Positions 4,734 to 42,754 are shown, counted from the first letter of the stretch. The stretch: DNA of 64,000 nucleotides from an uncultured Dehalococcoidia bacterium (GCA_964599885.1 CAZRHH010000011.1:1998-65997); one strand, 5' to 3'. Notes: generated from the letters alone by a model not told the origin. Numbers and translations: made by a program.

Positions 4734-4747
4734 AGGAGGTGGAGTAG

Positions 4748-15009: not shown

Positions 15010-15050
15010 CCGACCTCATCAACCTAAGACTCGCGAAATGGAGACCAACG

Positions 15051-15170: not shown

Positions 15171-15291
15171 TTCTTGAGCCGGTTGGCCACGGCGCCCTGG
15201 TCTACGGACGCCGCGCGACCGCGCCGCCAAACGCAAGGGCTATCCGCTCTCGCACTCGAACAGGACAGTCCTGCCAGGAGGGGTTCCAGCA

Positions 15292-17090: not shown

Positions 17091-17276
17091 TAGTCGCTAA
17101 CCTGCGTCGCACAATATTCGTTATGCGACCCCATTTCTTAGCCTCGGCTAGGCACGCCGTTAACGATTCGTTGTAGGCCGAACTAACTCATAGGCGCACG
17201 CCTCCAGCCTAACGCTATCGGCTCGAAAACTGCCGTCTTGACGGACGATGTTTTCGGTGTGCGATAATCCGGGCCG

Positions 17277-26942: not shown

Positions 26943-27226
26943 ATCGAAACCATCAATTCGACGTGACCGCTTGGCATGTATACAATCTCATGGTCAGATG
27001 CCGCGCAGGCATGACCATGGGACTGTCCGCGGTGTTGCGAGGACGGCGTCCTTGTCCAGATTCAGTGATGCCCCTCGGACACGGAACCTCGCTATCGAGC
27101 CTTCTAATCCGACGGTCGCAGGTTCGAATCCTGCCGGGGGTGCCACTAGATGCGAAAATTGCACCAAACCGCGCATTCCGCGGCTGGACGCCGACCATCG
27201 GACTGGTTCGCGACCATCGGATTCGC
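26943..27226 (+). repeat. tRNA-3'-end-like repeat, copy 1 (upstream arm + 76-nt pseudo-tRNA 27070..27145 + downstream arm)
   Basis: GTCGCAGGTTCGAATCCTGCCGGGGGTGCCA is a tRNA T-arm, acceptor 3' strand and CCA. The 5' half does not fold into D or anticodon arms. It shares about 130 bp upstream with copies 2 and 4, and about 80 bp downstream with copy 3. Confidence 0.6.
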
Positions 27227-27309
27227 TAGAACCATGCATGACGATCGCGCGGCGCCCCATCTGCGGAGGCATCTTCACGGTCTTCGAGTTGACTATCGGA
27301 AATGCAGTC

Positions 27310-28221
27310 TCATGGTCGCTTCTTGAGCGGAATGGGGTTGCTCGCTGGCGTTAGGGCGATCGCCAGGTCGTTGAAGCCTTGCTGCGACCAACCGACGCGT
27401 TCAGAACCCATCCGTTCGCGGAGCAGCGCGAAGAGTTGCTCCGCGGCAAGGACATCTTGCCAGTCTCCCCAACCGAGCTCTGCAAATCGCTTCGGTAGCG
27501 GCCGGTGACGCGTACGCCTTCCGTTTGCACCATCGCCGAAGAACGTGTCCACGATCACGCGATTTGCAGCACCCTTGAGTAACTCCACGAATCGCTCTGG
27601 CGAATGCGGCAGGGTGGGACTGACGGCGGCCTGCACCTTCACGCCTGCGGAGCGCGCTTTACGCATCGCGGCAAGGCGGCGATTGATGCTCGGACACGTC
27701 GGCGTAAGCGCGCGACGAACGTGATCGTCGTCGGTCTCGACGGTCATTGATAGCCACGCGAAAGGCATGCCATGCAACAAGTCGAGGTCGCGCTCGACGA
27801 TCGGCGACCGGGTCTGCACCACGAGCAATCCGATGGGCTGTTCGCGGAACACCTCCAGGATGGAGCGCGTGATTGCGAGTCGTCGTTCGGCCGGCTGGTA
27901 CGGATCTGTCGCTGAGCTCATGAATACGCGGATGGAGTTCGGATCGGTGACCGTCCCAAGATCGCGTCGTAAGGCCTCCGCAGCGTTCGCCTTGGCGCGG
28001 AGCCACTGACCCCAAGGCCGGCCCGCGTACAGCCCAATCGGCGACTCGGCGACATAGCAATACACGCCGCAACCTCCGTCGCCGAACGCGCAGCCCATGT
28101 ATGGGTTGAGCGTGTGTGTGAACGCATTGAGAAATCCGCTCGCGGGCGTCAGGACGCTACGCGATCGAACGAGCTGAGTCTCCGATGGCTTTAGGAGCGG
28201 CATTCGGTCTTTGTAGTACAT
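27310..28221 (-). CDS. Radical SAM enzyme, spore-photoproduct-lyase (SplB)-like / DNA repair photolyase family
   Basis: The Cys triad LNPYMGCAFGDGGCGVYCYV is characteristic of the SPL-like radical SAM family. 303 aa. Confidence 0.65.
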   Translation of the reverse strand: MYYKDRMPLLKPSETQLVRSRSVLTPASGFLNAFTHTLNPYMGCAFGDGGCGVYCYVAESPIGLYAGRPWGQWLRAKANAAEALRRDLGTVTDPNSIRVFMSSATDPYQPAERRLAITRSILEVFREQPIGLLVVQTRSPIVERDLDLLHGMPFAWLSMTVETDDDHVRRALTPTCPSINRRLAAMRKARSAGVKVQAAVSPTLPHSPERFVELLKGAANRVIVDTFFGDGANGRRTRHRPLPKRFAELGWGDWQDVLAAEQLFALLRERMGSERVGWSQQGFNDLAIALTPASNPIPLKKRP

Positions 28222-28227
28222 TCGTTC

Positions 28228-29862
28228 TCATCGGTCAAGCCTGAAACCGTCACAAGGCAACAGGTTTGCTCCGGGAAGGTCGGCCGCGACTCCGCGCGAG
28301 AGGACATATGCGTAGTTGCCCGCCAGGCGCATAGTCCTCGTCATGTCCTGAATGGTTAGATCCGTAAGGTTGAACCGGCGTGCATGTTCCAAGAGCTCCT
28401 GGGGACGTAGGTCTGCGTCTTCGATAACCACGTAGTCGCAATGGTTGAGGGCCTCGATGAGAACACTGGTTCCAGCTTTGGTCACGAGTGCACCCGGATC
28501 GAACCGCCGCGTTGGCAAATGGACAGCGTCCTGTGTGCCGTCCCGGGCACTCGCCGGCATGCCCGCGAAATAGGTTGAGAGCGCGGGCTGGGCGAATACG
28601 TGGCCCTCGTCGACGGCGAAGCGATGCGACGATGTGAGTAGCCCGTCGCGGTCGCTTCCGTTGCCACGCAGCCGGTCGGCAGGGGAACGCTCCCCTGCAT
28701 CAAACCAACTATTGTCTGCCGGCGGAGTCCGGAGTTCGCCTCTGGTGAACGAACGAACCTTGAAGTAGCTCGACATGTCTAACACTTTGCACACCAGGCC
28801 AAAGCGAAGGCCGCGGCGCCGAGGGAGCGGGCACCCTTCGACGAGCCACGAGCGGTAATCCGTCGGTATTCTCGAAAGAACCTCAGTCGATCGCTCGACT
28901 TCGCGGTCCTTAAGGCGCTTCGAAACTGTGGGGCCGATACTATCGATCAGTTGGATGCGTAGACGAGGGTCGATATCATGACGCTGCGCCCATCTCACCA
29001 ATCGTGTGCTCAGTTCCGCAGTTAGCGCTCCGCTACCGGCTCCGAGATCGACGAAATCGAACGTTGACCTCCCGCGACTGAATCGCTGCTGTTCGAGCAA
29101 GGGCTCGAAGACGTGGTTCCAAAGCCGCTGAGAGCGGTCACGGAAGAACGGATCCCCCGTTACACCCAACCGGTTTGCAACGGCACCAATCGCACGGAGG
29201 CTCCCTACGTCTCCTCCGGCTCTGTTGCCGGGGTATACCAACAGCGACATCTCTCCGCCTGGTTCCAGGGGGTATCGCCGGTAGTGGCCGAAGATCCGCG
29301 ACGGGTGATCCTTCAGCGCGACGATCGGAAGGAATCGCGTCGTGTGCGGCACTGTTGGCCATAGTCGTGCCAGGAGGTACACCGGGTTGCGCAATGTGCT
29401 TGTCGCTGCCGCGATGTCGCGGGTTGACGAATCGACGAGTGCGAAACACTCAAACCCTATCGTTGCAGCAACTGCGTCCTCGACCATCCGTGACGGCTCT
29501 CGAGCCTTTACCACCACAAGGTCGTCGAGCAGCGACCAGTAGTCGTGACAGTAGCGCGTTACTCCTTCGGAGAATCCGGATCGAATGTATCGTTCCCAGC
29601 TTTGGTGGAGCGACGCGCATTTCGAGAGTAGCGGTTGGTGTCTGAGCGTCTGAAGTGGACGCCAGTATTCCCACCAGTCGATGGCCGTGAGCGAAAGTGC
29701 TCCCGACGCCCCGATGTTTACCGACCGAATAATGTCAGGTCGGTGGAAGGCTGCTCCAAGAAGCGTGCGATCGTGCGATTCAACCGCTTGATCGCTTACG
29801 GGCACCGGCAACATCGCGTCACTCCTGGTCAATTCGGTTCCGTGTGGGTGACACGAAATCAC
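28228..29862 (-). CDS. Large protein with a central class I SAM-dependent methyltransferase fold
   Basis: Motif I-like FDFVDLGAGSGALTAEL. The N- and C-terminal regions are unassigned. Same strand and adjacent to the radical SAM gene. Confidence 0.45.
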   Translation of the reverse strand: MISCHPHGTELTRSDAMLPVPVSDQAVESHDRTLLGAAFHRPDIIRSVNIGASGALSLTAIDWWEYWRPLQTLRHQPLLSKCASLHQSWERYIRSGFSEGVTRYCHDYWSLLDDLVVVKAREPSRMVEDAVAATIGFECFALVDSSTRDIAAATSTLRNPVYLLARLWPTVPHTTRFLPIVALKDHPSRIFGHYRRYPLEPGGEMSLLVYPGNRAGGDVGSLRAIGAVANRLGVTGDPFFRDRSQRLWNHVFEPLLEQQRFSRGRSTFDFVDLGAGSGALTAELSTRLVRWAQRHDIDPRLRIQLIDSIGPTVSKRLKDREVERSTEVLSRIPTDYRSWLVEGCPLPRRRGLRFGLVCKVLDMSSYFKVRSFTRGELRTPPADNSWFDAGERSPADRLRGNGSDRDGLLTSSHRFAVDEGHVFAQPALSTYFAGMPASARDGTQDAVHLPTRRFDPGALVTKAGTSVLIEALNHCDYVVIEDADLRPQELLEHARRFNLTDLTIQDMTRTMRLAGNYAYVLSRGVAADLPGANLLPCDGFRLDR

Positions 29863-29941
29863 AGGGGGTCGGCGATCTCCAACGCCGCGATGTCACGTCG
29901 GACTCAGCATGAACCTGACGAGCGACTTCTCCATCGAGTAA

Positions 29942-30103
29942 AATCTCATGGTCAGATGCCGCGCGGGCATGACCATCGGACTCTTCGCGGCGTTGCGTCA
30001 GCGGCGTCCTTGCCCAGATTCAGTGATGCCCCTCGGACACGGAAACTCGCTATCGAGCCTTCTAATCCGATGGTCGCAGGTTCGAATCCTGCCGGGGGTG
30101 CCA
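29942..30103 (+). repeat. tRNA-3'-end-like repeat, copy 2 (upstream arm + pseudo-tRNA 30028..30103)
   Basis: Near-identical to copy 1 from AATCTCATGGTCAGATGCCGCGC through GGGGGTGCCA. The downstream sequence is unrelated. Confidence 0.6.
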
Positions 30104-30340
30104 CTCAACTTTCGAAGGGCTTCTTGAACGTTTGCAGTAGCATCCCAGCTGATTGCTGGAAAACACGCAACCCTGTCGGGGCACTTCATGCTTGAGGGTG
30201 GCGACGATCCACCCCAGCCGCTGGAACCGCTGCGGGCATGCGTCGTCCGCTGGTACGAGCGATCCGCGACGGATCACCACGGCGGGAATGGTGCGTTTGA
30301 CAGCTTGTGGGTTTGCGACCGCCCAGCCTAGGATGTTCCT

Positions 30341-32134
30341 GTGCTTCCGAAACCATTGATTCTGGCCCTTGCGCTCGTGGCGTCGCTCCTCATCGTGTCC
30401 TGCGGCGATGACCGGAACTCCCGCGACGACCGGGACGCATCGACCGCGCCGACCGTGAGCCCCGATATCCGTGACCGGCTTCAGAAGCCGGGCATGATCA
30501 CCCACGTGCGATACACGTCGTTCACGCCGCCGTGGCCGACGCGCACAGAAGCGTGGATCGACTGGGAAAACGATCGTGTTCGCACCTGGAACATCCAGTG
30601 GACCGATAGCCCCACGAATCCTTCTGTGTGCACATCGATCCAACACGCGGACGGTTGGTATCCCTGTCTGCCATCTCTGGAGAACTACGCTGCGGAGGAC
30701 TTTTCCCGGTTGTATGCGATCTGGCCCAGGGTCCCTCTCCGGACGTCGGATTCGGAAGTGAGCTTCCTGGGCGGAGTCCAGGCGATCTTTTCCGGCGCGT
30801 CGGACGTAGACTGGGCCACGCTGAAGATCGCGCCCGAAGCGACCACTACGGCAACATCTCAGGGCGACACGAATGTCGTCGTCAATTCCTGGGAAGTCCT
30901 ATCCGCCTTCGAAGTGCCCTGCCCGGAAGGCCAAGCGGGTTCTGCGACCTTCGACTACACCGCGACCGAGGAGGGCGAGCCGATCTCGGAGTTCATGATG
31001 GTGAGCTGCGGCGCCGAGCGCGGACAGTACCTCGGCGTCCTATACCACGAGATCGAGTTCGTCGAACCGTCTGATCTCCCGCCGGACTTCTTCGACGCCG
31101 ACGCGACTCGCGCGTCGCTCATCGGTGACCAGCTATCATCGGCCGCGGCACAGCTCGGCGCAATGTTCTGGTTGGGCGAACAGGCCGGCGAGTGGACACT
31201 GCAAGGGGTTGAGCAGCGTGAAGGAACGGCCACCGTCGGCTATTCGCGCGGGGATGGGGACGAAGAAGATGCAGTCACGCTGCAGACGCGTGCGCCGGGA
31301 TCCGGGCGCTTGTGTGACAACGCTGAGCCGATCCCGCATGACGCATACAACGGCTCGCTTTGCAGCGGCGATTACCCAGGGGACGACGAATACCGCATCG
31401 TCTGGACGCCGCCCGGGTTCGACTTGTGGCTGGAGCAGGAATCGTATCCGCCGGACCTCACCCGCGACGACGTGCTCGCGCTCGCTGCGAGCATCCAGCG
31501 ATGGGAGCGGTCGGCTTCAGAGCCATTGCTGACCGGCGATGACGTGCGCAGGCTTGTCGCTGACTCACTGGAACTGGTCTGTCCCAGCAAGCTGCGTGCG
31601 ATACGCGAAGCGCGCTCCACCGCGGCGTTCACCTTCGATCGAGAGACCGGTGAGTGGCACGGCGCGTTCGGCTCCTTCGGCGAGTACGCCGTGCCCGATT
31701 CGAAGCCGGTCGCGATTCCCGCCAGCCAACGCGAGGAAGTCGAATCGACGCTCTCCCACAATGCCGCACAGTTCGCCGAGTGTACGTTCGACGAACAGCC
31801 GCCACCGCAAGAAGGGGACGACGTCCTGGGCATCGAGTTTATGGGCCCGGACGAAGACGGCCTTTCGTTTAAGATCACCGGCGTTGACTCCGACACGGAA
31901 GCGGCCCTCAGCTTCTGCCTGTTGTCAGTTGGTGACGACAGCGGCTGTGAGCTGACGGATCCCGATGGTACGAACGTTGAGCTCCGCGGTGTGAACATCA
32001 ACACCATCCGCTCGAACGTCGTCGAGATCGACGTCGGTCTGTCGCCGGACGAACTCGGCCGCACCGGACCCTGGACGATGTCGCTCGACCTCGGAGACGG
32101 CCGGAAGACAAGCACCACATTTGACGTGCGGTAA
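30341..32134 (+). CDS. Secreted lipoprotein, hypothetical (597 aa)
   Basis: Signal peptide with lipobox LLIVSCGDD. No catalytic motif recognised. Confidence 0.5.
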   Translation: MLPKPLILALALVASLLIVSCGDDRNSRDDRDASTAPTVSPDIRDRLQKPGMITHVRYTSFTPPWPTRTEAWIDWENDRVRTWNIQWTDSPTNPSVCTSIQHADGWYPCLPSLENYAAEDFSRLYAIWPRVPLRTSDSEVSFLGGVQAIFSGASDVDWATLKIAPEATTTATSQGDTNVVVNSWEVLSAFEVPCPEGQAGSATFDYTATEEGEPISEFMMVSCGAERGQYLGVLYHEIEFVEPSDLPPDFFDADATRASLIGDQLSSAAAQLGAMFWLGEQAGEWTLQGVEQREGTATVGYSRGDGDEEDAVTLQTRAPGSGRLCDNAEPIPHDAYNGSLCSGDYPGDDEYRIVWTPPGFDLWLEQESYPPDLTRDDVLALAASIQRWERSASEPLLTGDDVRRLVADSLELVCPSKLRAIREARSTAAFTFDRETGEWHGAFGSFGEYAVPDSKPVAIPASQREEVESTLSHNAAQFAECTFDEQPPPQEGDDVLGIEFMGPDEDGLSFKITGVDSDTEAALSFCLLSVGDDSGCELTDPDGTNVELRGVNINTIRSNVVEIDVGLSPDELGRTGPWTMSLDLGDGRKTSTTFDVR

Positions 32135-32289
32135 CGCGTGGTTACCCCTTGGTTGTCGGAGGAACAGCGGACGGATTTAAGTCAGGAAGTCACGACTTGC
32201 GCCTGACTCCATCGACATGATCTAATCCGGTGGTCTAGTCTGCTAGGCATCGAGACCACAGGACTCGTTTCAGTTCTGGACGCTTTCGG

Positions 32290-32466
32290 TCTTCACTCAG
32301 ATTCACGGTTGCCCCGCGGACACGAAGTTTCGTTAACGAGCCTTCTAATCCGACGGTCGCAGGTTCGAATCCTGCCGGGGGTGCCACCAGATTCAAAATG
32401 ACCTCAAAACCGCGCATTTCGCGGGTTGAGGCCGACCATCGGACTTGTTCGCGACCATCGGATTCG
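32290..32466 (+). repeat. tRNA-3'-end-like repeat, copy 3 (diverged 5' part, pseudo-tRNA 32311..32386 + downstream arm)
   Basis: The 3' 45 nt are identical to copy 1. The downstream arm with the GACCATCGGA direct repeat is shared with copy 1. Confidence 0.55.
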
Positions 32467-32886
32467 TGCGAGCGCGTGCGCGTTCGGTCGAGCGGATGTT
32501 GTCCTACCAAATGTGGGCAGGCACGAGCCTTTGGAACGGCGACCGCTCACATGACCACGAGACTTCCGGTCTCACGATTGACGCGCGCCCACGAACGCGC
32601 CGTTTGACCTCGCTGAGCGTTGAGCGTATAGTCGCGTCACAACTGAATAGAGACGCCTGAGGTGGCCCGAACCCGATGTGAGGGTCTACGCAGGGGAAGC
32701 CGGTGAGAATCCGGCGCTGTCGCGCAACTGTGATCCCGCTCCCGCGGGTAAGCCAGGATACCTGCCCCAGGCGAATCCGAACGCCTTCGCGTGAAAGGGG
32801 TAGGAATCATGACTTCTATGTTTTGACTTTACCCCGAGTCCTTGCGACTCGGGGTTCTCCGTTTCTGACACTCTCGGATGTGAAAG

Positions 32887-34200
32887 GTGACGATCGTGCT
32901 GACACGGTTCTTCCTCGCCTGCTCGGCGATCTTCCTACTTGTTGCTGTAACAACTAACGCGTTCGCGGCCGGACCAGAATCCGCGGCGGCGCTGCAGGCA
33001 ACCAACTACATTCGCTCGCTGCAAAACGCGGACGGCGGCTTTCCCGCCTTCGGTGCAGACTCTAGTCCGTCAACGACCCTCGAAGCCGTGTTCTCCTTCA
33101 GCGCGTATGGCGTTGATGCGCGAACGGTGGAGAATGGAACGAACGGACCAGATGACTACCTGGCGGACCAGGTTGCTGGCGCAACTCTGCCCGCGGGAGC
33201 GGTGGCCAAACTCGCAGCCGGCCTTGCCGCAATGGATATCGATCCAGCGTCCTTCGCCGGCATGAACGTGCTCTCCGCGATGGAAGCCAACTACGATCCG
33301 GCGACGGGGAAATACGGTGATGACGTGTTCGCCCAGTCGCTGTTCATGCTCGCTGAGGTCGCGCTCGACCGGACGGTCCCTTCGATGGCTGCTGACTATC
33401 TCCAGTCGTTACAACTCATTGCCGGGGGCTGGGAGTTCTCGAGCGGCTGGGGTGCCGATACCAACAGCACCGCCCTGGCGCTCCGTGCGTTGATCGCCGC
33501 CGGCGTACCGGCTAGCGATCCCGACATCGCGGGGGCCATCGGGTACTTGCACGCCACGCAACAAGCTGACGGCGGATTCCCGTACTCCGTTCCCGGCGAT
33601 TCTGATCCTAATTCGACGGCCTATGTCATTCAGGCCATCGTCGCAGTGGGTCAAAGTGCCGAAGCAGGAGGCCCGTGGGATCTGGGCGGAAATGCGAATC
33701 CGTTGCACGCTCTCGTCGGCTTTCAGAACCCCGCCACCGGTGCCTTGCAGTTCTTTGGCAGCGACAACCCGTTCGCGACGTATCAGGGCGTACCGGGGCT
33801 GATGCTCGCGGCCTTCCCTGAGCAGTTCGATCCCGATGCGGTTCAACCAACGCCGACGGAGACCGCTACGGATTCACCAACCGCAACGGCAACTGCAACG
33901 ACTACGATCTCCGCTACGGCGACTGGGATCTCTCGTTCGAGCAACCGCGCGCCCGCGTCCACCGTGACGACCGCGCCCGTGGCTGCTGTGTCGACACCAG
34001 AGTCGGTCCCAACAAGAGTGAGTACGGTGCTCGCCGGATCAGCGCAGCCGAATCGACCGACGGGCGTCACCGCACTTCCTTCGGCGGGTTCCGGCGCAGA
34101 ACACTCTGCTTCTGGCGTCGCGATGCTCGCGTTCGCGCTATCAGGCGCAGCACTCGTCGCCGCTGGACTCGCGTCTCGCGGGAGGACGTCGGAACGGTGA
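32887..34200 (+). CDS. Cell-surface protein with prenyltransferase/squalene-oxidase-like repeats and a C-terminal sortase-type anchor
   Basis: Signal peptide, repeated QxxDGGFP motifs (QNADGGFPAF, QQADGGFPYS), a Thr/Ala/Pro-rich stalk, then LPSAG + hydrophobic segment + RGRTSER. Confidence 0.5.
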   Translation: MTIVLTRFFLACSAIFLLVAVTTNAFAAGPESAAALQATNYIRSLQNADGGFPAFGADSSPSTTLEAVFSFSAYGVDARTVENGTNGPDDYLADQVAGATLPAGAVAKLAAGLAAMDIDPASFAGMNVLSAMEANYDPATGKYGDDVFAQSLFMLAEVALDRTVPSMAADYLQSLQLIAGGWEFSSGWGADTNSTALALRALIAAGVPASDPDIAGAIGYLHATQQADGGFPYSVPGDSDPNSTAYVIQAIVAVGQSAEAGGPWDLGGNANPLHALVGFQNPATGALQFFGSDNPFATYQGVPGLMLAAFPEQFDPDAVQPTPTETATDSPTATATATTTISATATGISRSSNRAPASTVTTAPVAAVSTPESVPTRVSTVLAGSAQPNRPTGVTALPSAGSGAEHSASGVAMLAFALSGAALVAAGLASRGRTSER

Positions 34201-35246
34201 TGCCGATTGGCGCGAAACAAGGTCATCCCGCTTCGTGGGCAATCTGGATGTGCTCCGCGATGTTGATGGCGCTTGTGACATCGAACCCGCTGTACCACGC
34301 AACGATCGCGCTTTGCGCGTTGGTTGTGTACGCAAGCGTACGGTCGGACAGGACGCGAGGCCTGGAGGTCTTACTGGTCGCGGGCCTCATCCTCTCGTGT
34401 CTCAGCATCCTCCTCAACCTGGTGACGGGCAGCACGGGGCCGACCGAAGTGTTCGTGCTGCCCGGCGCTACGCTGCCGGGGTGGCTCGGTTCGGTCACCC
34501 TGGGCGGCCGGGTCACGGCCGAGTCGCTGGTCTACGCTGCCGATCAGGCTCTCGCGCTGGTTGCTCTCCTCTGCATCATCTGCGCGTTCAATGCCAGCAT
34601 CGATCACTTTCAGCTCCTCAAGCTAACGCCGCCGGGGCTGGCGCAACTGGGTGTTGTCGTCAGCGTCGGACTGCTTCTCGTGCCGGAGACGCTCGCCCGC
34701 GCGCGGACGTTGCGTGAGGCGCACATCAGTCGCGGGCGCAACGTTGGCTTCGGAACTATTCCATCATCGCTGCTCTCCTTGTTGAGCGACGGTCTCGAAC
34801 GCGCCGTCCAGCGGGCGGAGTCGCTTGACGCCCGCGGGTTCGGAGCGATGGCCGCGCCGCCACGACGGAGCGAAACTACGTTTTCGATCGGCGGCCTCGT
34901 GCTGGCCGCCGTCGGCGCGTTCTCCTGGTACTACGCGGAAGACGGGCGGCCGCTGGCGGCGACAGCTCTACTTTTCGGCGCGCTGCTGGTGATCTCCGTC
35001 GCCTGGCGTCAAGCGTCGCGCGGGACTGCGCGCCGGCTGTACGTCGCGACGTGGAGAAGGACGGATCTGTTCGTCGTCTCGGCGGCGATCGTGGGCGCCG
35101 TTGCGTTCTTCGCCCTCCGTGTAGGAGGGGGCAACCAGATCGACTATCTGCCGTTCCCGGTGGTGCATGCACCTGGCTACGGCATCGCTGCCGCAGCCGC
35201 TTGTTTGTTGCTGCTCGCACCGGTAATCACGAGGAACGAGCCTTGA
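34197..35246 (+). CDS. ecfT: ECF transporter transmembrane (T) component
   Basis: Polytopic membrane protein with an EcfT/CbiQ-like layout. Overlaps the neighbouring genes. Confidence 0.6.
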   Translation: MMPIGAKQGHPASWAIWMCSAMLMALVTSNPLYHATIALCALVVYASVRSDRTRGLEVLLVAGLILSCLSILLNLVTGSTGPTEVFVLPGATLPGWLGSVTLGGRVTAESLVYAADQALALVALLCIICAFNASIDHFQLLKLTPPGLAQLGVVVSVGLLLVPETLARARTLREAHISRGRNVGFGTIPSSLLSLLSDGLERAVQRAESLDARGFGAMAAPPRRSETTFSIGGLVLAAVGAFSWYYAEDGRPLAATALLFGALLVISVAWRQASRGTARRLYVATWRRTDLFVVSAAIVGAVAFFALRVGGGNQIDYLPFPVVHAPGYGIAAAAACLLLLAPVITRNEP

Positions 35247-36829
35247 AGCCGATCGTCGAGGCCGCGGCGCTGAGCTTCGCCTATGGAGCGTCAGCCCGTT
35301 GTGTCTTGCGTGAGCTTGATCTCCGCGTAGGAGAAGGAGAGCTCGTGCTGCTGGCTGGCCCCTCGGGCGGCGGAAAATCCACGCTTCTCCGATGTTTGAA
35401 CGGACTGATCCCGCACTTTCACGGCGGCAGATTTTCCGGGCGTGTGCTCGTCGGGGGACTCGATACGCGTGAGCATCAGCCTCGCGACATCGCATCCGTC
35501 GCGGGGCTCGTCTTCCAAGAGCCGGAAGCACAGAGTGTCGCCCGCACCGTGCAGGAAGAGATCGTTTTCGGCATGGAGAACCGCGGGTTCGATCGCGCTC
35601 TCATGCGCAAACGGCTCGAAGAGGCGCTCGATGCTCTCGGGATCGCTGCGCTTCGGACACGGGAGCTCGCGACGCTCTCCGGTGGCGAGCTGCAACGCGT
35701 CGCAATTGCCGCTGTCCTGACGATGCAGCCGCGCCTCATTTTGATGGATGAGCCAACCTCGCAGCTCGATCCGCAGGCGGCGGACGATGTTCTGCGCCTG
35801 GCTCGCGATCTACGCGAAGACCACGGCCTGACCGTCGTCCTCTCCGAGCACCGGCTGGATCGCGTTGCCTCCTACGTCGATCGCGTTCTGCATCTGCCGG
35901 GCGACGGCAGTGTGCAGACCCTCGCGCCACGCGATGCGATGCGCGTCCTGGTGGGAGCACCACCTGTCACCCAGATCGCGCGGGCGATGGAGTGGTCACC
36001 ATTGCCGCTATCGATCGCGGAGGCACGGCGCTTTCTTCCTGCCAACAAACACGGCTCCACACAACCATCTACGCCAGCAGTTACGGGCGATATCCTCGCT
36101 TCGATCCACAACATCACCGTACAGCTCGCTGGCCGAACGGTGCTGACAGTTGAGCGCATGACATTTCGCGAAGGCGAGTGCGTCGGCCTGATGGGCCGAA
36201 ACGGCGCGGGAAAGACGACCCTTCTTCGAGCGCTGGCCGGGCTCTTACGACCGAACACGGGTCGTCTCGCAGGCTTGACCGCCTTCGAGGCTCGCGTTCG
36301 GTACAAGGATATTGCGTTCGTTCCCCAGGATCCCGCGGCGACTCTGTTCAAGGCCACGCTCGAAGCCGAAGTAGGCGATGTTCTGGACGGCACGGGCCGC
36401 ACCGGTACCCTCGACGCCACACTCGCCGAATGGGATCTCGAACGCTTCCGGGAGCGTGACCACCGAGATTTGAGTGTCGGCGAACGGCAGCGAGCTGCTC
36501 TCGCGGCGCTTCTCGTCGGTCGACCGCGAATGATCCTGCTCGATGAGCCGACCCGGGGCATGGATGCAGCTACGAAGTCGCTCTTGTTGCGAAACCTCAA
36601 GCGTCGTTGTCGAGACGGTGCATGCGTGCTCCTGGCGAGCCACGACGTAGAACTCGTGGCGATGTTTGCCGATCGCGTTGTCCTGCTCGCGGAAGGCGAA
36701 GTGGTGCTCGACGCGCCGGCCCGCAGGGTCCTCACCGGTTCAATCACGTTCTCGACGCAGGCGAACAAGCTCGTCGGTGGCGATGTCCTCACAACAGAGG
36801 AAGCACTCGCGACGCTGGGGAGAACCTGA
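35243..36829 (+). CDS. ECF transporter duplicated ATPase (fused EcfA-EcfA', two ABC NBDs)
   Basis: Two Walker A motifs (GPSGGGKST, GRNGAGKTT) and two signature motifs (LSGGELQRVAIA, LSVGERQRAALA). TTG start at 35243 overlaps the ecfT stop. Confidence 0.75.
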   Translation: MKPIVEAAALSFAYGASARCVLRELDLRVGEGELVLLAGPSGGGKSTLLRCLNGLIPHFHGGRFSGRVLVGGLDTREHQPRDIASVAGLVFQEPEAQSVARTVQEEIVFGMENRGFDRALMRKRLEEALDALGIAALRTRELATLSGGELQRVAIAAVLTMQPRLILMDEPTSQLDPQAADDVLRLARDLREDHGLTVVLSEHRLDRVASYVDRVLHLPGDGSVQTLAPRDAMRVLVGAPPVTQIARAMEWSPLPLSIAEARRFLPANKHGSTQPSTPAVTGDILASIHNITVQLAGRTVLTVERMTFREGECVGLMGRNGAGKTTLLRALAGLLRPNTGRLAGLTAFEARVRYKDIAFVPQDPAATLFKATLEAEVGDVLDGTGRTGTLDATLAEWDLERFRERDHRDLSVGERQRAALAALLVGRPRMILLDEPTRGMDAATKSLLLRNLKRRCRDGACVLLASHDVELVAMFADRVVLLAEGEVVLDAPARRVLTGSITFSTQANKLVGGDVLTTEEALATLGRT

Positions 36830-37814
36830 GATGCGATGGATCATTCTGTTCGTGGCGACTGTCGTGCTCGCGATGGGTGCCGTGCCGAGTCGCGCTCACG
36901 CCTCATCGGCCATCGTCACATCCGATGCGGGTTGCGTGCAGAGCGCGGCTTCGGCCGCCGTCAACCAGGCCGGACTCGTCGTCACCTTTGGTGATGGACG
37001 CACGGTCACGTTCTGTGTCGAATTCGGCGAGGACTCGATCACCGGTCTTGAACTGCTTCAACGCTCCGGCCTGCAGTTGGTCACCTCGAATTCGAGCGGC
37101 CTTGGAGCGGCTGTGTGCAGCATTGACGGCGAAGGTTGCCAGGATCCGGGTGACTGCTTTTGCAAGTGCAAGGGAGGAAGCTGCGAGTACTGGGCCTATT
37201 ATCTGTACGACGATGGTGGCTGGAAGTTCTCACCTGTTGGCGCGGGCAATCGCTCCGTTCACGACGGCGACACCGACGGTTGGGCCTGGGGCGGAGGTTC
37301 TGGCGACACGCCGAACGGGAATGCTCCGGCGTGTGCCGAACCCACGCCGACGACTACGGTGGTACCGCCTCCGACACCTCGTCCATCCGCGACTCCGAGA
37401 GCGTCCGCCCCGACGGTTCCTCTAGAGCCGTCGGCAACGAGCGCTTCTCAAATTATCGAGACGAGCACGCTGGCTCCCACGGTACAGCTAGCCGTTCCAC
37501 CGCCCATTCCTACGGCTCCCGTTGTTCCCACGGTAGCGGTCCTTTCCGGAGTTCAGACGCCACGACAGCCGACGTCACCTTCTGGCACCCCGACCGCCAC
37601 CAGCAGTGAGCGTTCCGATCCCAGCGCGACGCCGTCGCGCGAGGCACGGGCGGGCGCTACTCGCGTGAGTGCCGATGAAGGTACGCGCAACCTGTCGACG
37701 CGCGCGGGTGGCGGCGGTTCCAGCCGGCTGAGCCTTGTCACGTTTGGCGCGGTTGCGGCCGTTCTCGCTGGTACCGCCAGCGTAGTGATCTGGAGACGCC
37801 GTGGTCGCGTCTGA
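36829..37814 (+). CDS. Secreted Cys-rich protein with a Pro/Thr stalk and C-terminal membrane anchor
   Basis: Signal peptide. Cys-rich domain CFCKCKGGSCEYWAYYLYDDGGW, reminiscent of ECF-associated substrate-capture proteins (DUF4430-like). C-terminal TM + RRRGRV. Confidence 0.45.
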
Positions 37815-38634
37815 CATCCGCATCCCTCGCGCACGGTTCACGCTCGCGTCGCGCCACGGCAGTACGGTCGCGATCGCTGTCATCAGCGCAGTAGGTGTCG
37901 CTGCATTCTTTTATCCGTTCATTACGGCGGGAGCGGCACAGGGAACGGAAGCGCAGGCCCATGCGGGCGATGCGCCCCTGATCTTTGGTACGCTCGCTGC
38001 CCTGGCGGGCGTGCTCTTCGTCGTGGAGCTCGCGTCGCAAGGCATGAACGCCAAGGTCGCTTCCGTGCTGGCTGTGTTGGCGACCGCTGCTGCCGCTCTT
38101 CGGATCGTTCCTCTGCCGGCCGGCGCAACGGCATTTTTCTTCCTGATCATCCTGAGCGGATACGTCTTCGGACCACGATTTGGCATGCTGCTGGGCGCCT
38201 TGGCCCTATTCGTTTCCGCGTTTGCCGTCGGCGGGTTCGGCCCATGGGTTCCGTTCCAGATGTTTGCGTCAGCGTGGATCGGCATGACCGCCGGTTGGCT
38301 CGGCGGCATGCGGCATGTCCTTGCCGGACGGCCGCGTATTGAGGTCGCTCTCCTCGCGTTGTTTGGTGGCGCCTGGGGCTTTGCTTACGGCGCACTGATG
38401 AATCTCTGGTTCTGGCCTTACATCGCCACTGGAGAGAATGTTTCGTGGGCGCCGGGGTTAGGTTTCGTGGAAACCCTTCGCCACTACTGGGCGTTCTACG
38501 TGCTGACGTCGTTCGGATGGGACGCGTGGACCGCACTGGGAAATGTGGTGCTTATCGCCGTCGCGGGACGGTCGGTGCTGCGGGTGCTTTTGCGATTCCG
38601 CGATCGGTTCACTGTTCAGTGGCGGTCGCTCTGA
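37801..38634 (+). CDS. ECF transporter substrate-specific (S) component-like membrane protein
   Basis: Six or seven TM helices, about 277 aa, last gene of the ECF cluster. GTG start. Confidence 0.45.
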   Translation: MVASDIRIPRARFTLASRHGSTVAIAVISAVGVAAFFYPFITAGAAQGTEAQAHAGDAPLIFGTLAALAGVLFVVELASQGMNAKVASVLAVLATAAAALRIVPLPAGATAFFFLIILSGYVFGPRFGMLLGALALFVSAFAVGGFGPWVPFQMFASAWIGMTAGWLGGMRHVLAGRPRIEVALLALFGGAWGFAYGALMNLWFWPYIATGENVSWAPGLGFVETLRHYWAFYVLTSFGWDAWTALGNVVLIAVAGRSVLRVLLRFRDRFTVQWRSL

Positions 38635-38669
38635 CGTCGTCCAGCGCTCGATCGCTTGTTGCCACAGCG

Positions 38670-38953
38670 ATCGAAACCATCAATTCGACATCACCGCGTG
38701 GCACGAATACAATCTCATGGTCGGGTGCCGCGCGGGCATGACCATGAGACTCTTCGCGATGTTGCGCGAACGGCGTCCTTGCCCAGATTCGGTGATGCCT
38801 CTCGGACACGGAAACTCGCTACCGAGCCTTCTAATCCGATGGTCGCAGGTTCGAATCCTGCCGGGGGTGCCACCAGATTCGAATCTCGCTCCAAGTCATC
38901 GCTTCGCTGTCGAAGATCAGAGCACCGGATTGACTCGCGAGCACCGGATTCGT
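38670..38953 (+). repeat. tRNA-3'-end-like repeat, copy 4 (full upstream arm + pseudo-tRNA 38797..38872 + diverged downstream arm)
   Basis: Homologous to copy 1 from ATCGAAACCATCAATTCGAC onward. The downstream arm GAGCACCGGATTGACTCGCGAGCACCGGATTCG is a diverged version of the GACCATCGGA repeat. Confidence 0.6.
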
Positions 38954-39044
38954 CTGGACATGCACGACGATCCGAGTTTCAGGTTGCCTGCCTGATCCTG
39001 GCCAGATAACGCCGACCACGTTCTACGGCGCTCTGTTGACGAGC

Positions 39045-39091
39045 GGATTACCAATCCGACGATGTCGGTTCGAATCTTTCCGTGGGTGCCG
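39045..39091 (+). repeat. tRNA-3'-end-like repeat, copy 5 (degenerate fragment)
   Basis: CCAATCCGACGATGTCGGTTCGAATCTTTCCGTGGGTGCC aligns to the CTAATCCGACGGTCGCAGGTTCGAATCCTGCCGGGGGTGCC core with indels. Confidence 0.4.
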
Positions 39092-39228
39092 TTATTCCTG
39101 TCGCCGCTAAGCTTTCCTACGACGACCTGCGTCCAATTCGCCTATCAACGCTCGATGCCAGATAATCGCCGCATCTGCGCTTGCTCGTGAAACGCGTGGG
39201 GCAGAGACGGATAGCAAGGAGTGACGGC

Positions 39229-39723
39229 ATGGACACGACAGTGACACCAGACCGCGTCGTAATCCGCGGCGCGATCGAGGCGATGGCGCCCGAATTTGCG
39301 ACTCTCGTGCGGGAGATTGGCGACGGGGGATGGAAGACGAAGAGCGGGATTCCCGCGTACACCTGCGGGCAACTCGCATGGCACTTGGCGTCGGGCACTT
39401 CGTTCCTTGCCGGTCAAATAGGGAAGGCGAAGGACGGAAAGGCGCTCAATCCGCCTGCATTCCTGCGGCCGATCCTCTACAAAATGAGCGAGTGGCGGGT
39501 TCGCGTCGTATCGCGGAAGGCGACCCCTGCGTCGGTGCTCGCCGATTTTGACACCGCCGCGCGGAAACTCCTGGCAGTGCTGGAATCGTTTGACGATGAA
39601 ACGCTGCGATTGTCCGCTACGCGTATGGGCGAGACGCTGACGATCGCCGGCCTGTTTCAGAAGCCCGTGGAGCACCTGGCGGAGCATGCCGCCCACATCC
39701 GCGCCGGCCTGCGCGACGCGTAG
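39229..39723 (+). CDS. DinB/YfiT-like (DinB_2) superfamily protein
   Basis: AAGGAG RBS before ATG 39229. Four-helix-bundle family pattern with a conserved His region (WHLASGTSF ... EHLAEHAAH). Confidence 0.5.
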   Translation: MDTTVTPDRVVIRGAIEAMAPEFATLVREIGDGGWKTKSGIPAYTCGQLAWHLASGTSFLAGQIGKAKDGKALNPPAFLRPILYKMSEWRVRVVSRKATPASVLADFDTAARKLLAVLESFDDETLRLSATRMGETLTIAGLFQKPVEHLAEHAAHIRAGLRDA

Positions 39724-39792
39724 CCTCCTGCGCAGCGTCGACGGAGAGTGGCCGGTGCTGTGGCAGCGTGGGATCTTTCGGGTCCGTCACCA

Positions 39793-40232
39793 ATGCAATG
39801 GACTGCGGTATTGCGCTGCGTTGAAACGAACGAGGAGCTAACCTCACTCCTGGACAGGCAGCGTTGGACACTCGCAGCCGTGGGCGTGCCGGGCGTCTTG
39901 CTCGCAGTTTTCTTCGCTCACTCCTCTTGCGGTGTCGATCGGATCGAGATCTCGGCTGGAGACGCCGCCTTCGACACGGACACGCTGAAGGTTCCTGCGG
40001 AGGGGCCCTTCGCCATCGTATTCAAGAACAACGACAGCGGCATAGAACACGGCTTCGCCATCTACGAGAGTCGAGAGGCGGCCAAGGGCGGAGACGATTC
40101 AACGCTGCAACCGAGATTACGAGCGGTCCCGATACGCAAGAGCTAGACGTCGCCGCGCCAGACGCGGATGAGTACTTCTTCTGGTGCGATGTGCATCAGG
40201 ACCGGATGGGTGGGAGGCTGATTGCACGTTAG
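39793..40232 (+). pseudogene. Cupredoxin-like (blue copper) protein with an apparent 1-nt frameshift near 40095-40110
   Basis: One frame gives the signal peptide plus the cupredoxin beta-strands EISAGDAAFDTDTLKVPAEGPFAIVFKNNDSGIEHGFAIY. The C-terminal copper ligands (YFFWCDVHQDRMGG) are in the -1 frame ORF ending at 40232. Confidence 0.45.
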
Positions 40233-40515
40233 GAAGTCTGCGGTGAATGCGCCGTTGAGTCATGCTTCGCTCGAGCAGCGTCTCGCCCGTGCGCAGACTG
40301 TCAAAGCGGACGCAGGTGCCGGGCAGCAGGACGAGGATCACGGATAGACTTCGGCTCAGGTCCGTCGCTGTCTGACCAGCTTCGGGCTCAGGGATTGCTC
40401 GGAGCGGCAAACTCCGTGCGGTCCCGACCTTCGCTGGGAAGATAGCACGGCCAGTCAAGCGCCAGAAGCTGAAGGCGCAGAACCTAAAGCTCGACATGCA
40501 GCGGGGGATAGCGGT

Positions 40516-41397
40516 GTGGATGATTCGGATTGGCTGGCTCGGTTGCCGGCGTTACTCGAGCGGTGCGTTGAACGCTGGTCGTTGGAGTTAGGAGAGCGGC
40601 TCGAAACCGGGTACCTCGCGGAAGTCCGCGGCTGCACAGGCCCGGACGGCGAAGACCTCGTGATCAAGGTTTCGGCGCCACTCGCGAACACCGCGAACGA
40701 AGCCAACGCCCTTGCGCACTGGGGCGGACGTGGCGCCGCCAGGCTCGTGGCGTGGGACGCGGACATCGGCGCCCTGCTCCTCGAACGAATCCGGCCGGGC
40801 ACGCTGCTGATGGACCGAGACCGCTCCGCCACGGACGACGAACTCGCCATCACTGCCGCGTCTCGTGCACTCGCCGCCATGCAGGCCGTACCCGCGCCCC
40901 CGGCGGGTAGCTTTCCTTCGTTCGAGGAGAAGCTGCGGTGGTGGCTGGACTACACGGCCATCTATGGCGAACCCGAAGCAGCTGGCACGCTGATGCTGCC
41001 GCTCTTCGAACATAGTGCCCTCCGCCTCGATGCCTTCGCGAAGCGCAAGACGCTGGCTCACGGCGGCGACTTCATCGCAAAGAACTTGCTGCTCGGACCC
41101 AACGGCTGTTATGCCGCTGTCGATCCGCTGCCCTACATCGGTGACCCCTGCTCCGATGCCGGCCAGTTCTCGGCGTGGCACTCGCCGGTCGTGACCGTCA
41201 TCCCGCGCGCGCGGCATCGCGGAGGCAACCGGAAACGACCCGGACCGCGCGGCGCCGTGGGCGGCGGTCTGGATGGTCTTCCAAGCCTGCGAAACCTGGC
41301 GCGACGACTCGGACGATGTGCAGGCGTGGGTGGTGGGCGATGAGTGTCGACGCCTGCTGCATGCCCCGCCAATAACCCACGTGACTTCACCGTAACC
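40516..41397 (+). pseudogene. Aminoglycoside phosphotransferase (APH-family, streptomycin-kinase-like) with an apparent frameshift near 41200-41212
   Basis: Kinase core HGGDFIAKNLLL ... AAVDPLPYIGDPCSDAGQF. The plausible C-terminus RGIAEATGNDPDRAAPWAAVWMVFQACETWRDDSDD continues in another frame after the CCCGCGCGCGCGG run. Confidence 0.5.
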
Positions 41398-41538
41398 GTT
41401 GCTGAGAATCGTCGGATTGGGTCTCCGCCCGGACGTGATCAGGCGCGCAGACCACACCGGGGGCCGAGTCCCGGCGCGTGCGTGAGCAGGTGCGAGAGAC
41501 GCTGATCTGCTCCTAACGTTCCTGGCGCACTTAGGCCG

Positions 41539-41919
41539 TTAGCTGCCGGCGGACTGGAAGAGCTCGATCGGATTGCCGGAGGGGTCGTCGAGCAGGATCT
41601 GCTTCCCTCCCGGACCGGTGACGATGTCATTGCGGAAGCGCACGCCTTCGGCTCGCAGGCGCTCAACCTCGGCCGCGATGTCATCGACCACGAAGTGGAT
41701 CCGGTTCCAGCCACCGGGGACCGGCTGGGCACCGTCGGGCATGGGACGCGCGGCGGAGCTCTGAGGCCCGCTCAGCAGGATGCGCAGATTGCCCCGGAAG
41801 ACATCGGCGAAGGCCGGGGCGTTGGTGCCGATCGTGAAACCGAAATGCTTCGTGTAGAAGTCGACCGCGCTAGGGACGTCCTCGACCATGTAGCGGACGC
41901 TGACGGTGTCTTCGGGCAT
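41539..41919 (-). CDS. VOC-family (glyoxalase/bleomycin-resistance) protein
   Basis: 126 aa with the typical VOC betaalphabetabetabeta layout (YMVEDVPSAVDFYTKHFGF ... IHFVVDDIAAEVERLRAEGVRF). Confidence 0.65.
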   Translation of the reverse strand: MPEDTVSVRYMVEDVPSAVDFYTKHFGFTIGTNAPAFADVFRGNLRILLSGPQSSAARPMPDGAQPVPGGWNRIHFVVDDIAAEVERLRAEGVRFRNDIVTGPGGKQILLDDPSGNPIELFQSAGS

Positions 41920-41932
41920 GGGACTAACCTCC

Positions 41933-42709: not shown

Positions 42710-42754
42710 GATACATCAACGTCAATAGATTGAACAAGGTGGTTTGATAGATAT

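Follow-up and report, generated by a model that had tools for sequence, protein, structure and literature searches.

A 64,000-nt stretch of DNA from an uncultured Dehalococcoidia (Chloroflexota) bacterium, referred to here as the window, very probably contains a tandem array of integrated elements at a single tRNA-Arg(UCU) gene. The repeats in this array are best read as the docking sites, some remnant and some still intact, of mobile DNA that was serially inserted into that one gene. The row of small integrase-less gene cassettes between them is a genomic island of a known kind, belonging to a family that seems undescribed so far. This reading draws on the tRNA origin of the repeat cores, the attP architecture around them, the integrase adjoining attL, the polymorphism among relatives and the wide occurrence of the cassettes, each of which can be read from the sequences compared. 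The features of the locus are as follows, with coordinates counted from the first letter of the window.

1 to 27145, + strand: element A, ~27.9 kb, with its left end at about -778 (Pfam; synteny with locus L024)
2 to 436, + strand: 3' part of a tyrosine integrase gene, with the C-terminal motifs HLLRHTFAT... and LLGHTS readable
26973 to 27101, + strand: P arm of junction 1 (nhmmer E=4e-29; half-site scan)
27102 to 27145, + strand: core 1, attR of element A and attL of islet B (exact matches; identical to the genuine tRNA of L003 and others)
27146 to 30103, + strand: islet B, 2,958 bp, with a radical SAM gene and a gene for a 544-aa protein
27147 to 27245, + strand: P' arm of junction 1 (nhmmer E=5e-18; P'-arm alignment)
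27291 to 27317, + strand: pseudo-core at the end of the radical SAM gene, kept in the window, L048 and L032
27310 to 28221, - strand: radical SAM gene of islet B (Pfam, NCBIfam)
28228 to 29862, - strand: gene for the 544-aa protein of islet B (no family match)
29936 to 30103, + strand: junction 2, P arm (29936-30059) and core 2, without a recognisable P' arm
30060 to 30103, + strand: core 2 (exact match)
30104 to 32386, + strand: islet C, 2,283 bp, with a single 597-aa ORF (30341-32134) and the divergent junction 3 as its right border
32212 to 32482, + strand: junction 3, divergent P arm (32212-32342), core 3 and P' arm (32389-32482)
32343 to 32386, + strand: core 3 (exact match)
32387 to 38872, + strand: islet D, 6,486 bp, with a cobalamin riboswitch and five genes
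32643 to 32783: cobalamin riboswitch of islet D (Rfam RF00174, 67.1 bits)
32887 to 38634, + strand: the five genes of islet D, including a duplicated ABC ATPase and an ECF S component (Pfam)
38700 to 38971, + strand: junction 4, P arm (38700-38828), core 4 and P' arm (38875-38971)
38829 to 38872, + strand: core 4 (exact match)
39038 to 39091, + strand: copy 5, in which a mimic of the anticodon arm (GACGAGCGGATT ACC AATCCGACGATG) precedes the decayed remains of a T arm and acceptor end (alignments)
39092 to 41523, no strand: distal variable part of the island (Pfam)
39181 to 39723, + strand: DinB/MDMPI_N gene of the distal part (Pfam)
40516 to 41343, + strand: APH_6_hur kinase gene of the distal part (Pfam)
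41524 to 42755, - strand: conserved chromosomal flank, with genes for a glyoxalase (41539-41919) and an ArsR-LMW phosphatase fusion (41933-42709) (Pfam)

The 31-mer GTCGCAGGTTCGAATCCTGCCGGGGGTGCCA occurs four times exactly, always on the + strand and ending at 27145, 30103, 32386 and 38872, as a preliminary description of the locus had reported; no match was obtained in 100 shuffles (0/100). The invariant block measures 49 nt (GAGCCTTCTAATCCGAYGGTCGCAGGTTCGAATCCTGCCGGGGGTGCCA), with a single C/T difference among the copies. Each core is the 3' 44 nt of tRNA-Arg(UCU), running from the anticodon loop through CCA, and is identical to nt 33-76 of the tRNA-Arg(tct) genes that ARAGORN recognised in L003 and in 21 further Dehalococcoidia/Chloroflexota loci. 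When set against genuine tRNAs, the invariant block was identical to the 3' half of tRNA-Arg(UCU) in Dehalococcoidia genomes, a conservation across genomes that is partly built into the result, since the search patterns demanded an exact core. Identity to the tRNA begins at the anticodon loop in every arm lineage, an unrelated viral contig included. The copies had been described as not being functional tRNAs, in agreement with ARAGORN, which found zero tRNAs within the 64,000-nt window, and with the Rfam tRNA model, on which copy 4 scored 15.8 bits versus a gathering score of 29. One complete chromosome contains the exact core at two places only, the tRNA itself and an attR; the core is therefore not a dispersed repeat.

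The degenerate fifth copy was located by alignment at ~39038-39091. It is part of a conserved block (P' arm, pseudo-core and DinB gene) that recurs in L007, where 2344-3241 is 80% identical at the nucleotide level to window positions 38908-39749. Four exact copies and one decayed copy thus lie in the window as first described, but the array does not stop at five, as a sixth core lies ~780 bp upstream of the window on L057, a contig of the same organism. L057 opens with the last 30 nt of this core, so that the contig end falls inside it, and continues into a P' arm and the full integrase; assemblies break at this locus because the arms and core are conserved. The copy at the equivalent place is a complete tRNA in three relatives (L024, L029 and L053).

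The repeat unit extends well beyond the tRNA fragment recognised initially: the tRNA part stands, but each junction is a full composite attP-like site of ~270 bp with iterated half-sites, composed of a P arm, the tRNA-derived core and a P' arm. In the P arm (~130 nt), two 12-mer half-sites in inverted orientation accompany a CAGATTC box, and the P' arm (~100 nt) contains a CAGATTC box and two direct half-sites, all half-sites mimicking the tRNA anticodon arm. At junction 1, the inverted half-sites (26984-26995 and 27013-27024) lie around a palindrome, with the CAGATTC box at 27057-27063, while the P' arm has direct half-sites at 27193-27204 and 27212-27223 together with a small hairpin and a CAGATTC box in degenerate form. 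P arms were detected by nhmmer at 26973-27101, 29936-30059, 32212-32342 and 38700-38828. Those of copies 1, 2 and 4 show 85-87% mutual identity and form the upstream block originally attributed to these three copies; however, copy 3 belongs to the set too, with an arm at only 50-56% identity to the others and 86.5% identity to the P arm of L032. The shared downstream block after copies 1, 3 and 4 mapped to 27147-27245, 32389-32482 and 38875-38971, and neither nhmmer nor the alignment of P' arms revealed a recognisable P' arm after copy 2. Both of islet C's own arms are accordingly atypical (P' arm missing after copy 2, divergent P arm at copy 3). Islet C lacks a P' arm, as does islet B in L048, and therefore a complete attP is not present in every unit.

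The pseudo-core at the end of the radical SAM gene consists of a half-site, a 3-nt spacer and an inverted half-site, reproducing anticodon-arm geometry; its right half-site (27306) has zero mismatches, and its left half (GACTATCGGAAA) is degenerate in the window. In total, 17 zero-mismatch half-sites were found in the window, all at junctions or at adjoining P'-distal sites (27306, 32553), compared with a chance expectation of ~0.24 computed from the consensus. The half-sites and CAGATTC boxes are presumably binding sites of the integrase and accessory factors.

Core 1 is the attR of element A, in keeping with the original proposal that the first copy marks the right end of a large integrase-led element. 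The gene content of element A (integrase, HTH protein, Replic_Relax, TrwB-like coupling protein and defence cargo; Pfam) indicates that it is integrative and probably mobilisable. In L024, tRNA-Arg is followed by integrase, Replic_Relax and TrwB-like protein genes in the same order as in element A. The full-length integrase has 350 aa, begins 160 bp after the core at about window position -616, and is encoded by a complete gene at L057 193-1245 (Pfam Phage_integrase). Its amino acid identity is 70-74% to the homologues in L024 and L029 and 88% to that in P0002/L053; the L024 homologue is Xer-like, scoring below the XerC/D model cut-offs. L024, L029 and L053 each present a genuine tRNA, then a P' arm, then the integrase (70-88% identical to that at the window edge).

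Downstream of element A, each islet carries its own cargo. The radical SAM enzyme described in the first islet matched Pfam and NCBIfam families, but the accompanying 544-aa protein, previously termed MTase-like, matched no family in either database, leaving that label unsupported, and nor did the 597-aa protein of islet C, which had been listed as a lipoprotein. Islet D had been credited with a complete ECF transporter, of which the duplicated ABC ATPase and the ECF S component stood but the T component was not confirmed. The cobalamin riboswitch at 32643-32783 is absent from that earlier account. Neither jackhmmer nor, for the ORFs tested, Pfam detected a tyrosine recombinase in islets B, C and D or in ~20 further att-bounded cassettes. 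Islets B, C and D can thus be classed as cassettes of the cis-mobilizable-element (CIME) type, att-flanked and without a tyrosine recombinase.

Arrays with the same arms were found at >30 metagenomic loci. The ~20 att-bounded cassettes each contain 1-6 genes, including APH kinases, Arr, GNAT, amidase and DinB; the units are small (0.8-6.5 kb) and of mixed orientation. Where a P' arm is present, it lies next to the cargo, within ~65-240 bp (checked for window islets B and D, L013, L025 and L037). As judged from these loci, integrase-less units are the rule, and they recur across many genomes with a varied cargo of one to six genes.

Islet content differs between the related genomes L048, L032, L003 and L015, which include near-empty sites. 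In L048, element A is absent and a genuine tRNA is directly joined to islet B, which matches the window islet at 83% nucleotide identity over 2,830 bp (L048 5172-7992) but whose P' arm is missing. The chromosomal flank is 88% identical at the nucleotide level to L032 and 76-78% identical to L003 and L015, and in each of these the homology begins at 41524-41548. The sites of L003 and L015 are nearly empty, the tRNA or core adjoining this flank. L032 lacks islet C, islet D and the DinB gene; its radical SAM gene is only 71% identical, versus 88% for the flank, and abuts the flank with no att site between, which indicates that deletions or other rearrangements also shape the array. Region 39092 to 41523 is missing between att site and flank in L032, L003 and L015, and contains no recognisable att sites; in L044 and L007, its DinB gene belongs to the cargo of a cassette. 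The array originally placed at 26943-39091 is thus real, but its right end was set too early, the variable part of the island reaching ~41,524. With no copy called as a tRNA, a 3' block that is a genuine tRNA-Arg(UCU) 3' half, and polymorphic relatives, the interpretation as a tRNA-targeted att-site array was upheld; the evidence for integration is comparative, between genomes.

We propose a mechanism in which the Xer-like tyrosine integrase of the 28-kb element would recombine the attP of a circular element with the anticodon-arm region of the tRNA gene. The crossover is likely to fall in the anticodon loop. The incoming element would supply the tRNA 3' 44 nt, from anticodon loop to CCA, so that the tRNA stays intact, and the displaced tRNA 3' half would remain at the far end of the element. 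Repeated events would stack elements in tandem, and each internal junction would then comprise the P arm of one element, a core and the P' arm of the next, a hybrid attP. Using any two cores, the integrase may also excise and re-insert cassettes in trans, and the intact cores and half-sites suggest mobilisation of cassettes by the integrase of a neighbouring element. Taken furthest, the arrays may constitute a working integron-like cassette system in tRNA-Arg(UCU), in which a Xer-like integrase on a larger mobilisable element captures, excises and reshuffles in trans integrase-less cassettes that bear a complete ~270-bp attP around the tRNA half. We put this forward tentatively, with well short of even confidence.

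The islets could instead be decayed elements that once had their own integrase, element A alone being mobile and the cassettes being fixed chromosomal DNA, which we consider somewhat unlikely. Decayed cores and arms do exist (copy 5, and distal copies in L004, L005, L010 and L013 as well as in the window), islet C has no P' arm, in L032 radical SAM gene and flank are fused, typical cargo genes occupy 39.1-41.5 kb without att sites, and excision of the islets is putative. Against such a fossil array, however, the four cores are 98-100% identical whereas the P arms are 50-87% identical, a difference of 13-50%, and zero-mismatch half-sites are intact in the arms of islets B and D. In addition, ~20 cassettes have no integrase and yet, in those with a P' arm, this arm adjoins the cargo in the cases checked, which independent random deletions could hardly produce, and the DinB and radical SAM cargos sit in different array contexts between genomes.

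Homologous recombination or segmental duplication might also have spread the junctions, with cassettes swapped via the conserved ~270-bp arms after DNA uptake. Arms and cores together offer 170-300 bp of 85-100% identity in direct orientation, enough for RecA-dependent exchange, and cassette content varies among relatives while the arms persist. As a replacement for integration this is improbable, as it leaves unexplained why the repeat consists of precisely the tRNA 3' half from the anticodon loop, why a tyrosine integrase lies beside tRNA and P' arm in four genomes, and why the arms contain iterated anticodon-arm mimics; it may well act alongside integration, not in its place. A multicopy gene for a structured tRNA-like RNA, corresponding to a ~170-nt unit ending in CCA, can be set aside almost entirely: an acceptor-like stem, at the cost of one bulged base, and a T arm are possible in each window copy, copy 3 differs from the other copies by compensatory changes in the upstream hairpin, and a weak, sub-threshold YrlA match reached 14.2 bits, but only the P-arm inverted repeat and T arm are conserved across 12 family members, the putative 5' acceptor strand is not (12 homologues; covariation term -0.14 kcal/mol), neither ARAGORN nor Rfam gave a hit at threshold, and compensatory inverted-repeat changes are equally expected of paired protein-binding half-sites.

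Several known systems resemble this array. In Streptococcus thermophilus, ICESt1/ICESt3-related elements show tandem accretion of ICEs/IMEs with CIMEs (Pavlovic et al. 2004, cited in PMC3146451; review PMC5704250). There, as here, units are stacked at one attachment site with att repeats between them, and some, the CIMEs, keep att sites without integration or transfer genes, their movement with a neighbouring element, or through its integrase, having been proposed. The present system differs in its target (the anticodon loop of tRNA-Arg(UCU)), in its Dehalococcoidia host and in having integrase-less units as the rule, and is known from sequence alone. The ssrA islands of Dehalococcoides, in the same bacterial class, are likewise multiple and arranged in tandem, here on the downstream side of a single small RNA gene whose 3' end recurs as direct repeats at their borders (McMurdie et al. 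2011, PMC3146451); 15 lack an integration module and were proposed to be CIMEs (PMC3146451). Those islands use the tmRNA T-loop as target, a 20-bp repeat, the 540-aa serine recombinase DsiB and rdhA cargo (PMC3146451). Membership of that family was ruled out for the present array by its tRNA-Arg(UCU) target, 44-nt core, Xer-like tyrosine recombinase and long arms with half-sites. Tycheposons of Prochlorococcus integrate at tRNA genes with a partial tRNA copy alone separating neighbours; newcomers push older elements inward, leaving remnants and extra partial tRNAs deeper, and each element brings an integrase and a replication module of its own (Hackl et al., bioRxiv 10.1101/2020.12.28.424599). 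The likeness to our array, by description, lies in elements at a tRNA gene with partial tRNA copies between neighbours, whereas the units here mostly lack an integrase and replication module, and host phylum and integrase lineage differ.

By analogy, the arrays also resemble integrons, as rows of small, promoter-independent, recombinase-free cassettes each ending in a recombination site, with one simple Xer-like tyrosine recombinase that would serve the array. The cargo is similar (APH, Arr, GNAT, glyoxalase-type and DinB-type genes). The attC sites between integron cassettes are imperfect palindromes of 60-140 bp. Assignment to integrons was rejected: the L024 integrase homologue scored 55.9 bits on the NCBIfam model integrase_gron versus a cut-off of 265, with XerC/XerD as best matches, below cut-off; attC hairpin sites and attI are absent, the ~270-bp junctions instead carrying a tRNA half, with an inverted repeat only in the P arm. 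Unlike integrons, the array is anchored in a tRNA gene and its cassettes are of mixed orientation.

Neither tandem islands at tRNA genes nor CIMEs without an integrase are new, and both are usually seen as occasional decay by-products of larger elements. Here, integrase-less small cassettes with complete arms are the dominant form, occurring in dozens of uncultured Dehalococcoidia genomes with an integron-like cargo spectrum. The conserved arms and core can serve as sequence baits with which to retrieve such cassettes from metagenomes. If the cassettes are mobilised in trans, they would represent a second, independent route to cassette-based gene capture, via ordinary attP/attB chemistry and a tRNA anchor, and resistance-type genes (APH, Arr, GNAT) and corrinoid-uptake modules would have a source in a poorly studied phylum. 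Were this a working system, soil and groundwater Dehalococcoidia would share an exchangeable pool of antibiotic-modifying kinases, Arr and GNAT enzymes, corrinoid uptake functions and signalling enzymes.

The preliminary description had placed a tRNA-3′-end-like 31-mer at four positions of the window, and four exact copies were found, all on the plus strand and ending at 27145, 30103, 32386 and 38872 (0 of 100 shuffles matched), as was the fifth, decayed copy at ~39038–39091. The invariant block spans 49 nt with a single C/T difference, and the cores are 98–100% identical to each other. A profile of the shared upstream block (P arm) matched before copies 1, 2 and 4, as had been described, with 85–87% identity among these arms; copy 3, which had been left out, belongs to the set too, at 50–56% identity to the others. 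The shared downstream block (P′ arm) was confirmed by profile after copies 1, 3 and 4, with no match after copy 2. The profile matches were:

26973–27101, P arm of copy 1 (upstream-block profile)
29936–30059, P arm of copy 2 (upstream-block profile)
32212–32342, P arm of copy 3 (upstream-block profile)
38700–38828, P arm of copy 4 (upstream-block profile)
27147–27245, P′ arm after copy 1 (downstream-block profile)
32389–32482, P′ arm after copy 3 (downstream-block profile)
38875–38971, P′ arm after copy 4 (downstream-block profile)

No copy is itself a tRNA, in agreement with the earlier reading: ARAGORN called zero tRNAs in the window, and the Rfam tRNA model gave copy 4 15.8 bits, versus a gathering score of 29. 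A scan with the 43-nt core (one genome per species) returned 32 loci, nearly all from Dehalococcoidia or Chloroflexota MAGs, at 22 of which ARAGORN called a genuine tRNA-Arg(tct), GCCCCCGTAGCTCAGTGGACAGAGCACCGGACTTCTAATCCGACGGTCGCAGGTTCGAATCCTGCCGGGGGTGCCA. The window cores correspond to nt 33–76 of this tRNA, from the anticodon loop through CCA. In every partial-copy lineage, including that of an unrelated low-GC IMG/VR contig (L001), identity to the tRNA starts at or just before TTCTAA. For tRNA-targeting tyrosine integrases, Williams is said to have described in 2002 a sublocation I, an anticodon-loop crossover with the element supplying the tRNA 3′ half; from the position of the identity boundary, we infer the same arrangement here. 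The complete chromosome OY969567.1 contains just two exact cores (one tRNA and one attR, with a decayed copy nearby), and the core thus does not represent a dispersed repeat family.

The low-GC viral contig (IMG/VR UViG_3300029286_001477) carries the same 44-nt tRNA-Arg(UCU) 3′ half at 2152–2195 and its own tyrosine integrase at 2361–3470; as its flanks show no relation to the P and P′ arms, the same site is targeted by other element families as well. Scanning viral contigs for the P arm plus core gave no match, and relaxing the scan brought up one unrelated element sharing the tRNA half, and one genuine tRNA. Contig JADMII010000010.1 carries two complete tRNA-Arg(tct) genes with the same 3′ half, at 3899–3974 (L008) and 6117–6192 (L028), the former adjoined by an integrase; a whole tRNA copy may be carried by an element.

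The ~130 nt upstream of the core were aligned for 12 partial copies, taken from the window and eight further loci, revealing an attP-like architecture. Conserved along the P arm are, from 5′ to 3′, an inverted-orientation half-site, AATCYSRTGGTC, a short palindrome (ATGCCC...GGGCAT) and a direct-orientation half-site, GACCAYSGGAYT; a variable stretch separates these from an invariant CAGATTC, which precedes TTCTAA by exactly 38 nt. In the P′ arm, CAGATTC recurs 3′ of CCA, in an orientation that varies between loci, followed by a small hairpin and one or two direct half-sites within TTCGCGASCAYCGGATTCG. The half-site is the sequence of both sides of the tRNA anticodon arm (GAGCACCGGACT / AATCCGAYGGTC). 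Its consensus, GASCAYSRGAYT, has 17 zero-mismatch matches in 64 kb, versus ~0.24 expected by chance (calculated from the consensus), all of them at junctions or adjoining P′-distal sites (27306, 32553). Two further pseudo-cores show the anticodon-arm geometry of half-site, 3 nt and inverted half-site. One spans 27291–27317, where the radical SAM gene has its 3′ end, and three genomes conserve it (the window; L048, ~5172–5200; L032, ~1745–1775); it may be a secondary site for recombination or one for accessory binding. The second is part of copy 5, with conserved counterparts in L007, L040, L045 and L044.

Suggestive single- and four-sequence folds raised the possibility of a structured or tRNA-like RNA. 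This reading was rejected: in the 12-member alignment, conservation is limited to the T arm and the inverted repeat of the P arm, with a covariation term of −0.14 kcal/mol in the family-wide consensus, and Rfam and ARAGORN were negative. A two-piece (permuted) tmRNA or a YrlA/Y-RNA-like module had been suggested by the T arm, the CCA end and a GGATTCG further downstream. Both were rejected: ARAGORN called no tmRNA, YrlA scored 14.2 bits versus 69, and the GGATTCG belongs to the half-site motif. A further candidate reading was an IS110-type bridge RNA or another transposon end.

The window starts within a tyrosine recombinase gene, encoding a 144-aa fragment with 70–74% identity to the integrases of L024 and L029 and 88% to that of L053 (P0002), which was the best match in a homologue search that returned no identical protein. 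At all three of these loci a genuine tRNA-Arg(tct) and a P′ arm immediately precede the integrase gene, and L024 also encodes Replic_Relax and TrwB-like proteins in the same order as in the window. The L024 integrase is a two-domain, Xer-like protein scoring below the XerC/XerD cut-offs, with no match to its N-terminal region in three family libraries; such an enzyme would fit arms built of core-like half-sites. The missing left end is covered by a short-read Logan contig from the same organism (SRR6868922_45108, L057), of which one sub-range (L052) is 100% identical to window 2570–17242; the organism is present in read sets SRR6868922 and SRR6868923. This contig reaches window position −808 (negative values lie upstream of position 1). 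Its first bases are the final 30 nt of the core; a P′ arm and a complete 350-aa integrase (L057 193–1245) come next, placing a sixth core copy where attL should be, with the contig ending within the repeat, short of any tRNA 5′ half. Its position 1 falls exactly inside the repeated core; the repeats interrupt assembly at this locus, so that MAG-based surveys probably under-count such arrays.

Several gene groups were observed in element A, the unit extending from the integrase to copy 1. At 7522–13535 (+), a Dcm cytosine methylase is followed by HATPase_c_3, Z1-domain and DUF4420 (PD-(D/E)XK-like) proteins, resembling a restriction/defence gene cluster. At ~15292–17090 (+) (L057 16101–17899), Multi_ubiq, DUF6791-ThiF (E1-like) and BubE-family genes are grouped in what resembles a bacterial operon for ubiquitin-like conjugation, of a kind linked to phage defence. 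The element also carries a Peptidase_M78 (ImmA-like) gene at 13706–14233 (−) and a small HTH gene at 2077–2373 (−); proteins of these types regulate excision in other integrative elements.

Islet presence differs between related genomes. L048 lacks element A; immediately behind its genuine tRNA lies a homologue of the whole of islet B (83% nucleotide identity over 2,830 bp), ending in P arm and core. In L032, whose chromosomal flank is 88% identical to window 41524–42355, P arm, core and P′ arm are followed by the radical SAM gene alone (71% nucleotide identity) and then the flank, without the 544-aa gene of islet B, islets C and D, or the DinB and APH genes. The window's flank genes lie 1.4 kb from the tRNA in L003 and 250 bp from a core in L015. 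These comparisons place the island at ~−780 to ~41,524, past the array end in the preliminary description. Between 39.1 and 41.5 kb, where the DinB and APH genes lie, no att site is recognisable; cassettes of L044 and L007 carry the DinB gene as cargo. L020 has a genuine tRNA-Arg(tct) (2243–2318, −), and ~400 bp downstream of it a homologue of the 544-aa protein is encoded (46% identity; 321–1844, +). No arms are recognisable there, and the gene represents either a cassette fixed long ago or an ancestral part of the flank.

Scanning metagenomes for CAGATTC together with the core added 17 loci. When arms, cores, tRNAs and integrases were mapped across the full set of loci, arrays were seen in L004, L007, L010, L013, L035, L043, L044, L048, L050 and L051, with ~20 att-bounded units of 0.8–6.5 kb carrying one to six genes each. 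Decay is seen in distal cores of arrays; the window's four are exact. The cargo includes an amidase, several APH kinases, an Arr rifampin ADP-ribosyltransferase, a GNAT acetyltransferase, DinB, cyclase-hydrolase fusions, a GGDEF-EAL protein, an alcohol dehydrogenase and an HTH regulator. APH-type kinases recur in the arrays (L004, L007, L035, L048 and L050, and window 40516–41343), alongside Arr and a GNAT acetyltransferase, a spectrum similar to that of environmental integron cassettes; an integron was rejected, as neither integrase nor sites fit. An iterated integrase search of all ORFs of all loci found tyrosine recombinases only in L001, L002, L008, L021, L024, L029 and at the window edge, and none inside cassettes. 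Islet D is headed by a cobalamin riboswitch at 32643–32783 (+) (RF00174, 67.1 bits), the sole Rfam match in the window at the gathering threshold. The genes that follow (32887–38634) encode a prenyltransferase/terpene-cyclase-like protein, a duplicated ABC ATPase and an ECF S component, an arrangement suggestive of a self-contained uptake cassette under B12 control within a mobile unit.

The array is best explained by serial site-specific integration at tRNA-Arg(UCU), as originally proposed, given the core's identity with the tRNA 3′ half, the integrase beside the attL-position core and the polymorphic relatives. Serial integration would yield a 28-kb integrase-bearing, probably mobilisable element and CIME-like (cis-mobilizable) cassettes, with every internal junction a hybrid attP, which would explain the arm-sharing pattern. 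Typical arms flank islets B and D on either side. Islet C is the divergent unit, with both its own arms atypical: the P′ arm is missing after copy 2, and the P arm preceding copy 3 has diverged. The exact cores, intact half-sites, consistent absence of integrases and cargo in varying contexts make it plausible that the integrase excises and re-inserts cassettes in trans; homologous recombination between arms may move cassettes as well.

The array family was not found described in a literature search. Among the closest systems are the tandem accretion with CIMEs in streptococci, the tandem ssrA islands of Dehalococcoides, of which 15 lack integration modules and were proposed to be CIMEs (PMC3146451), and tycheposon islands, which contain partial tRNA repeats (bioRxiv 10.1101/2020.12.28.424599). 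The mechanism class is ordinary; what is unusual is the predominance and spread of small integrase-less cassettes with complete arms.
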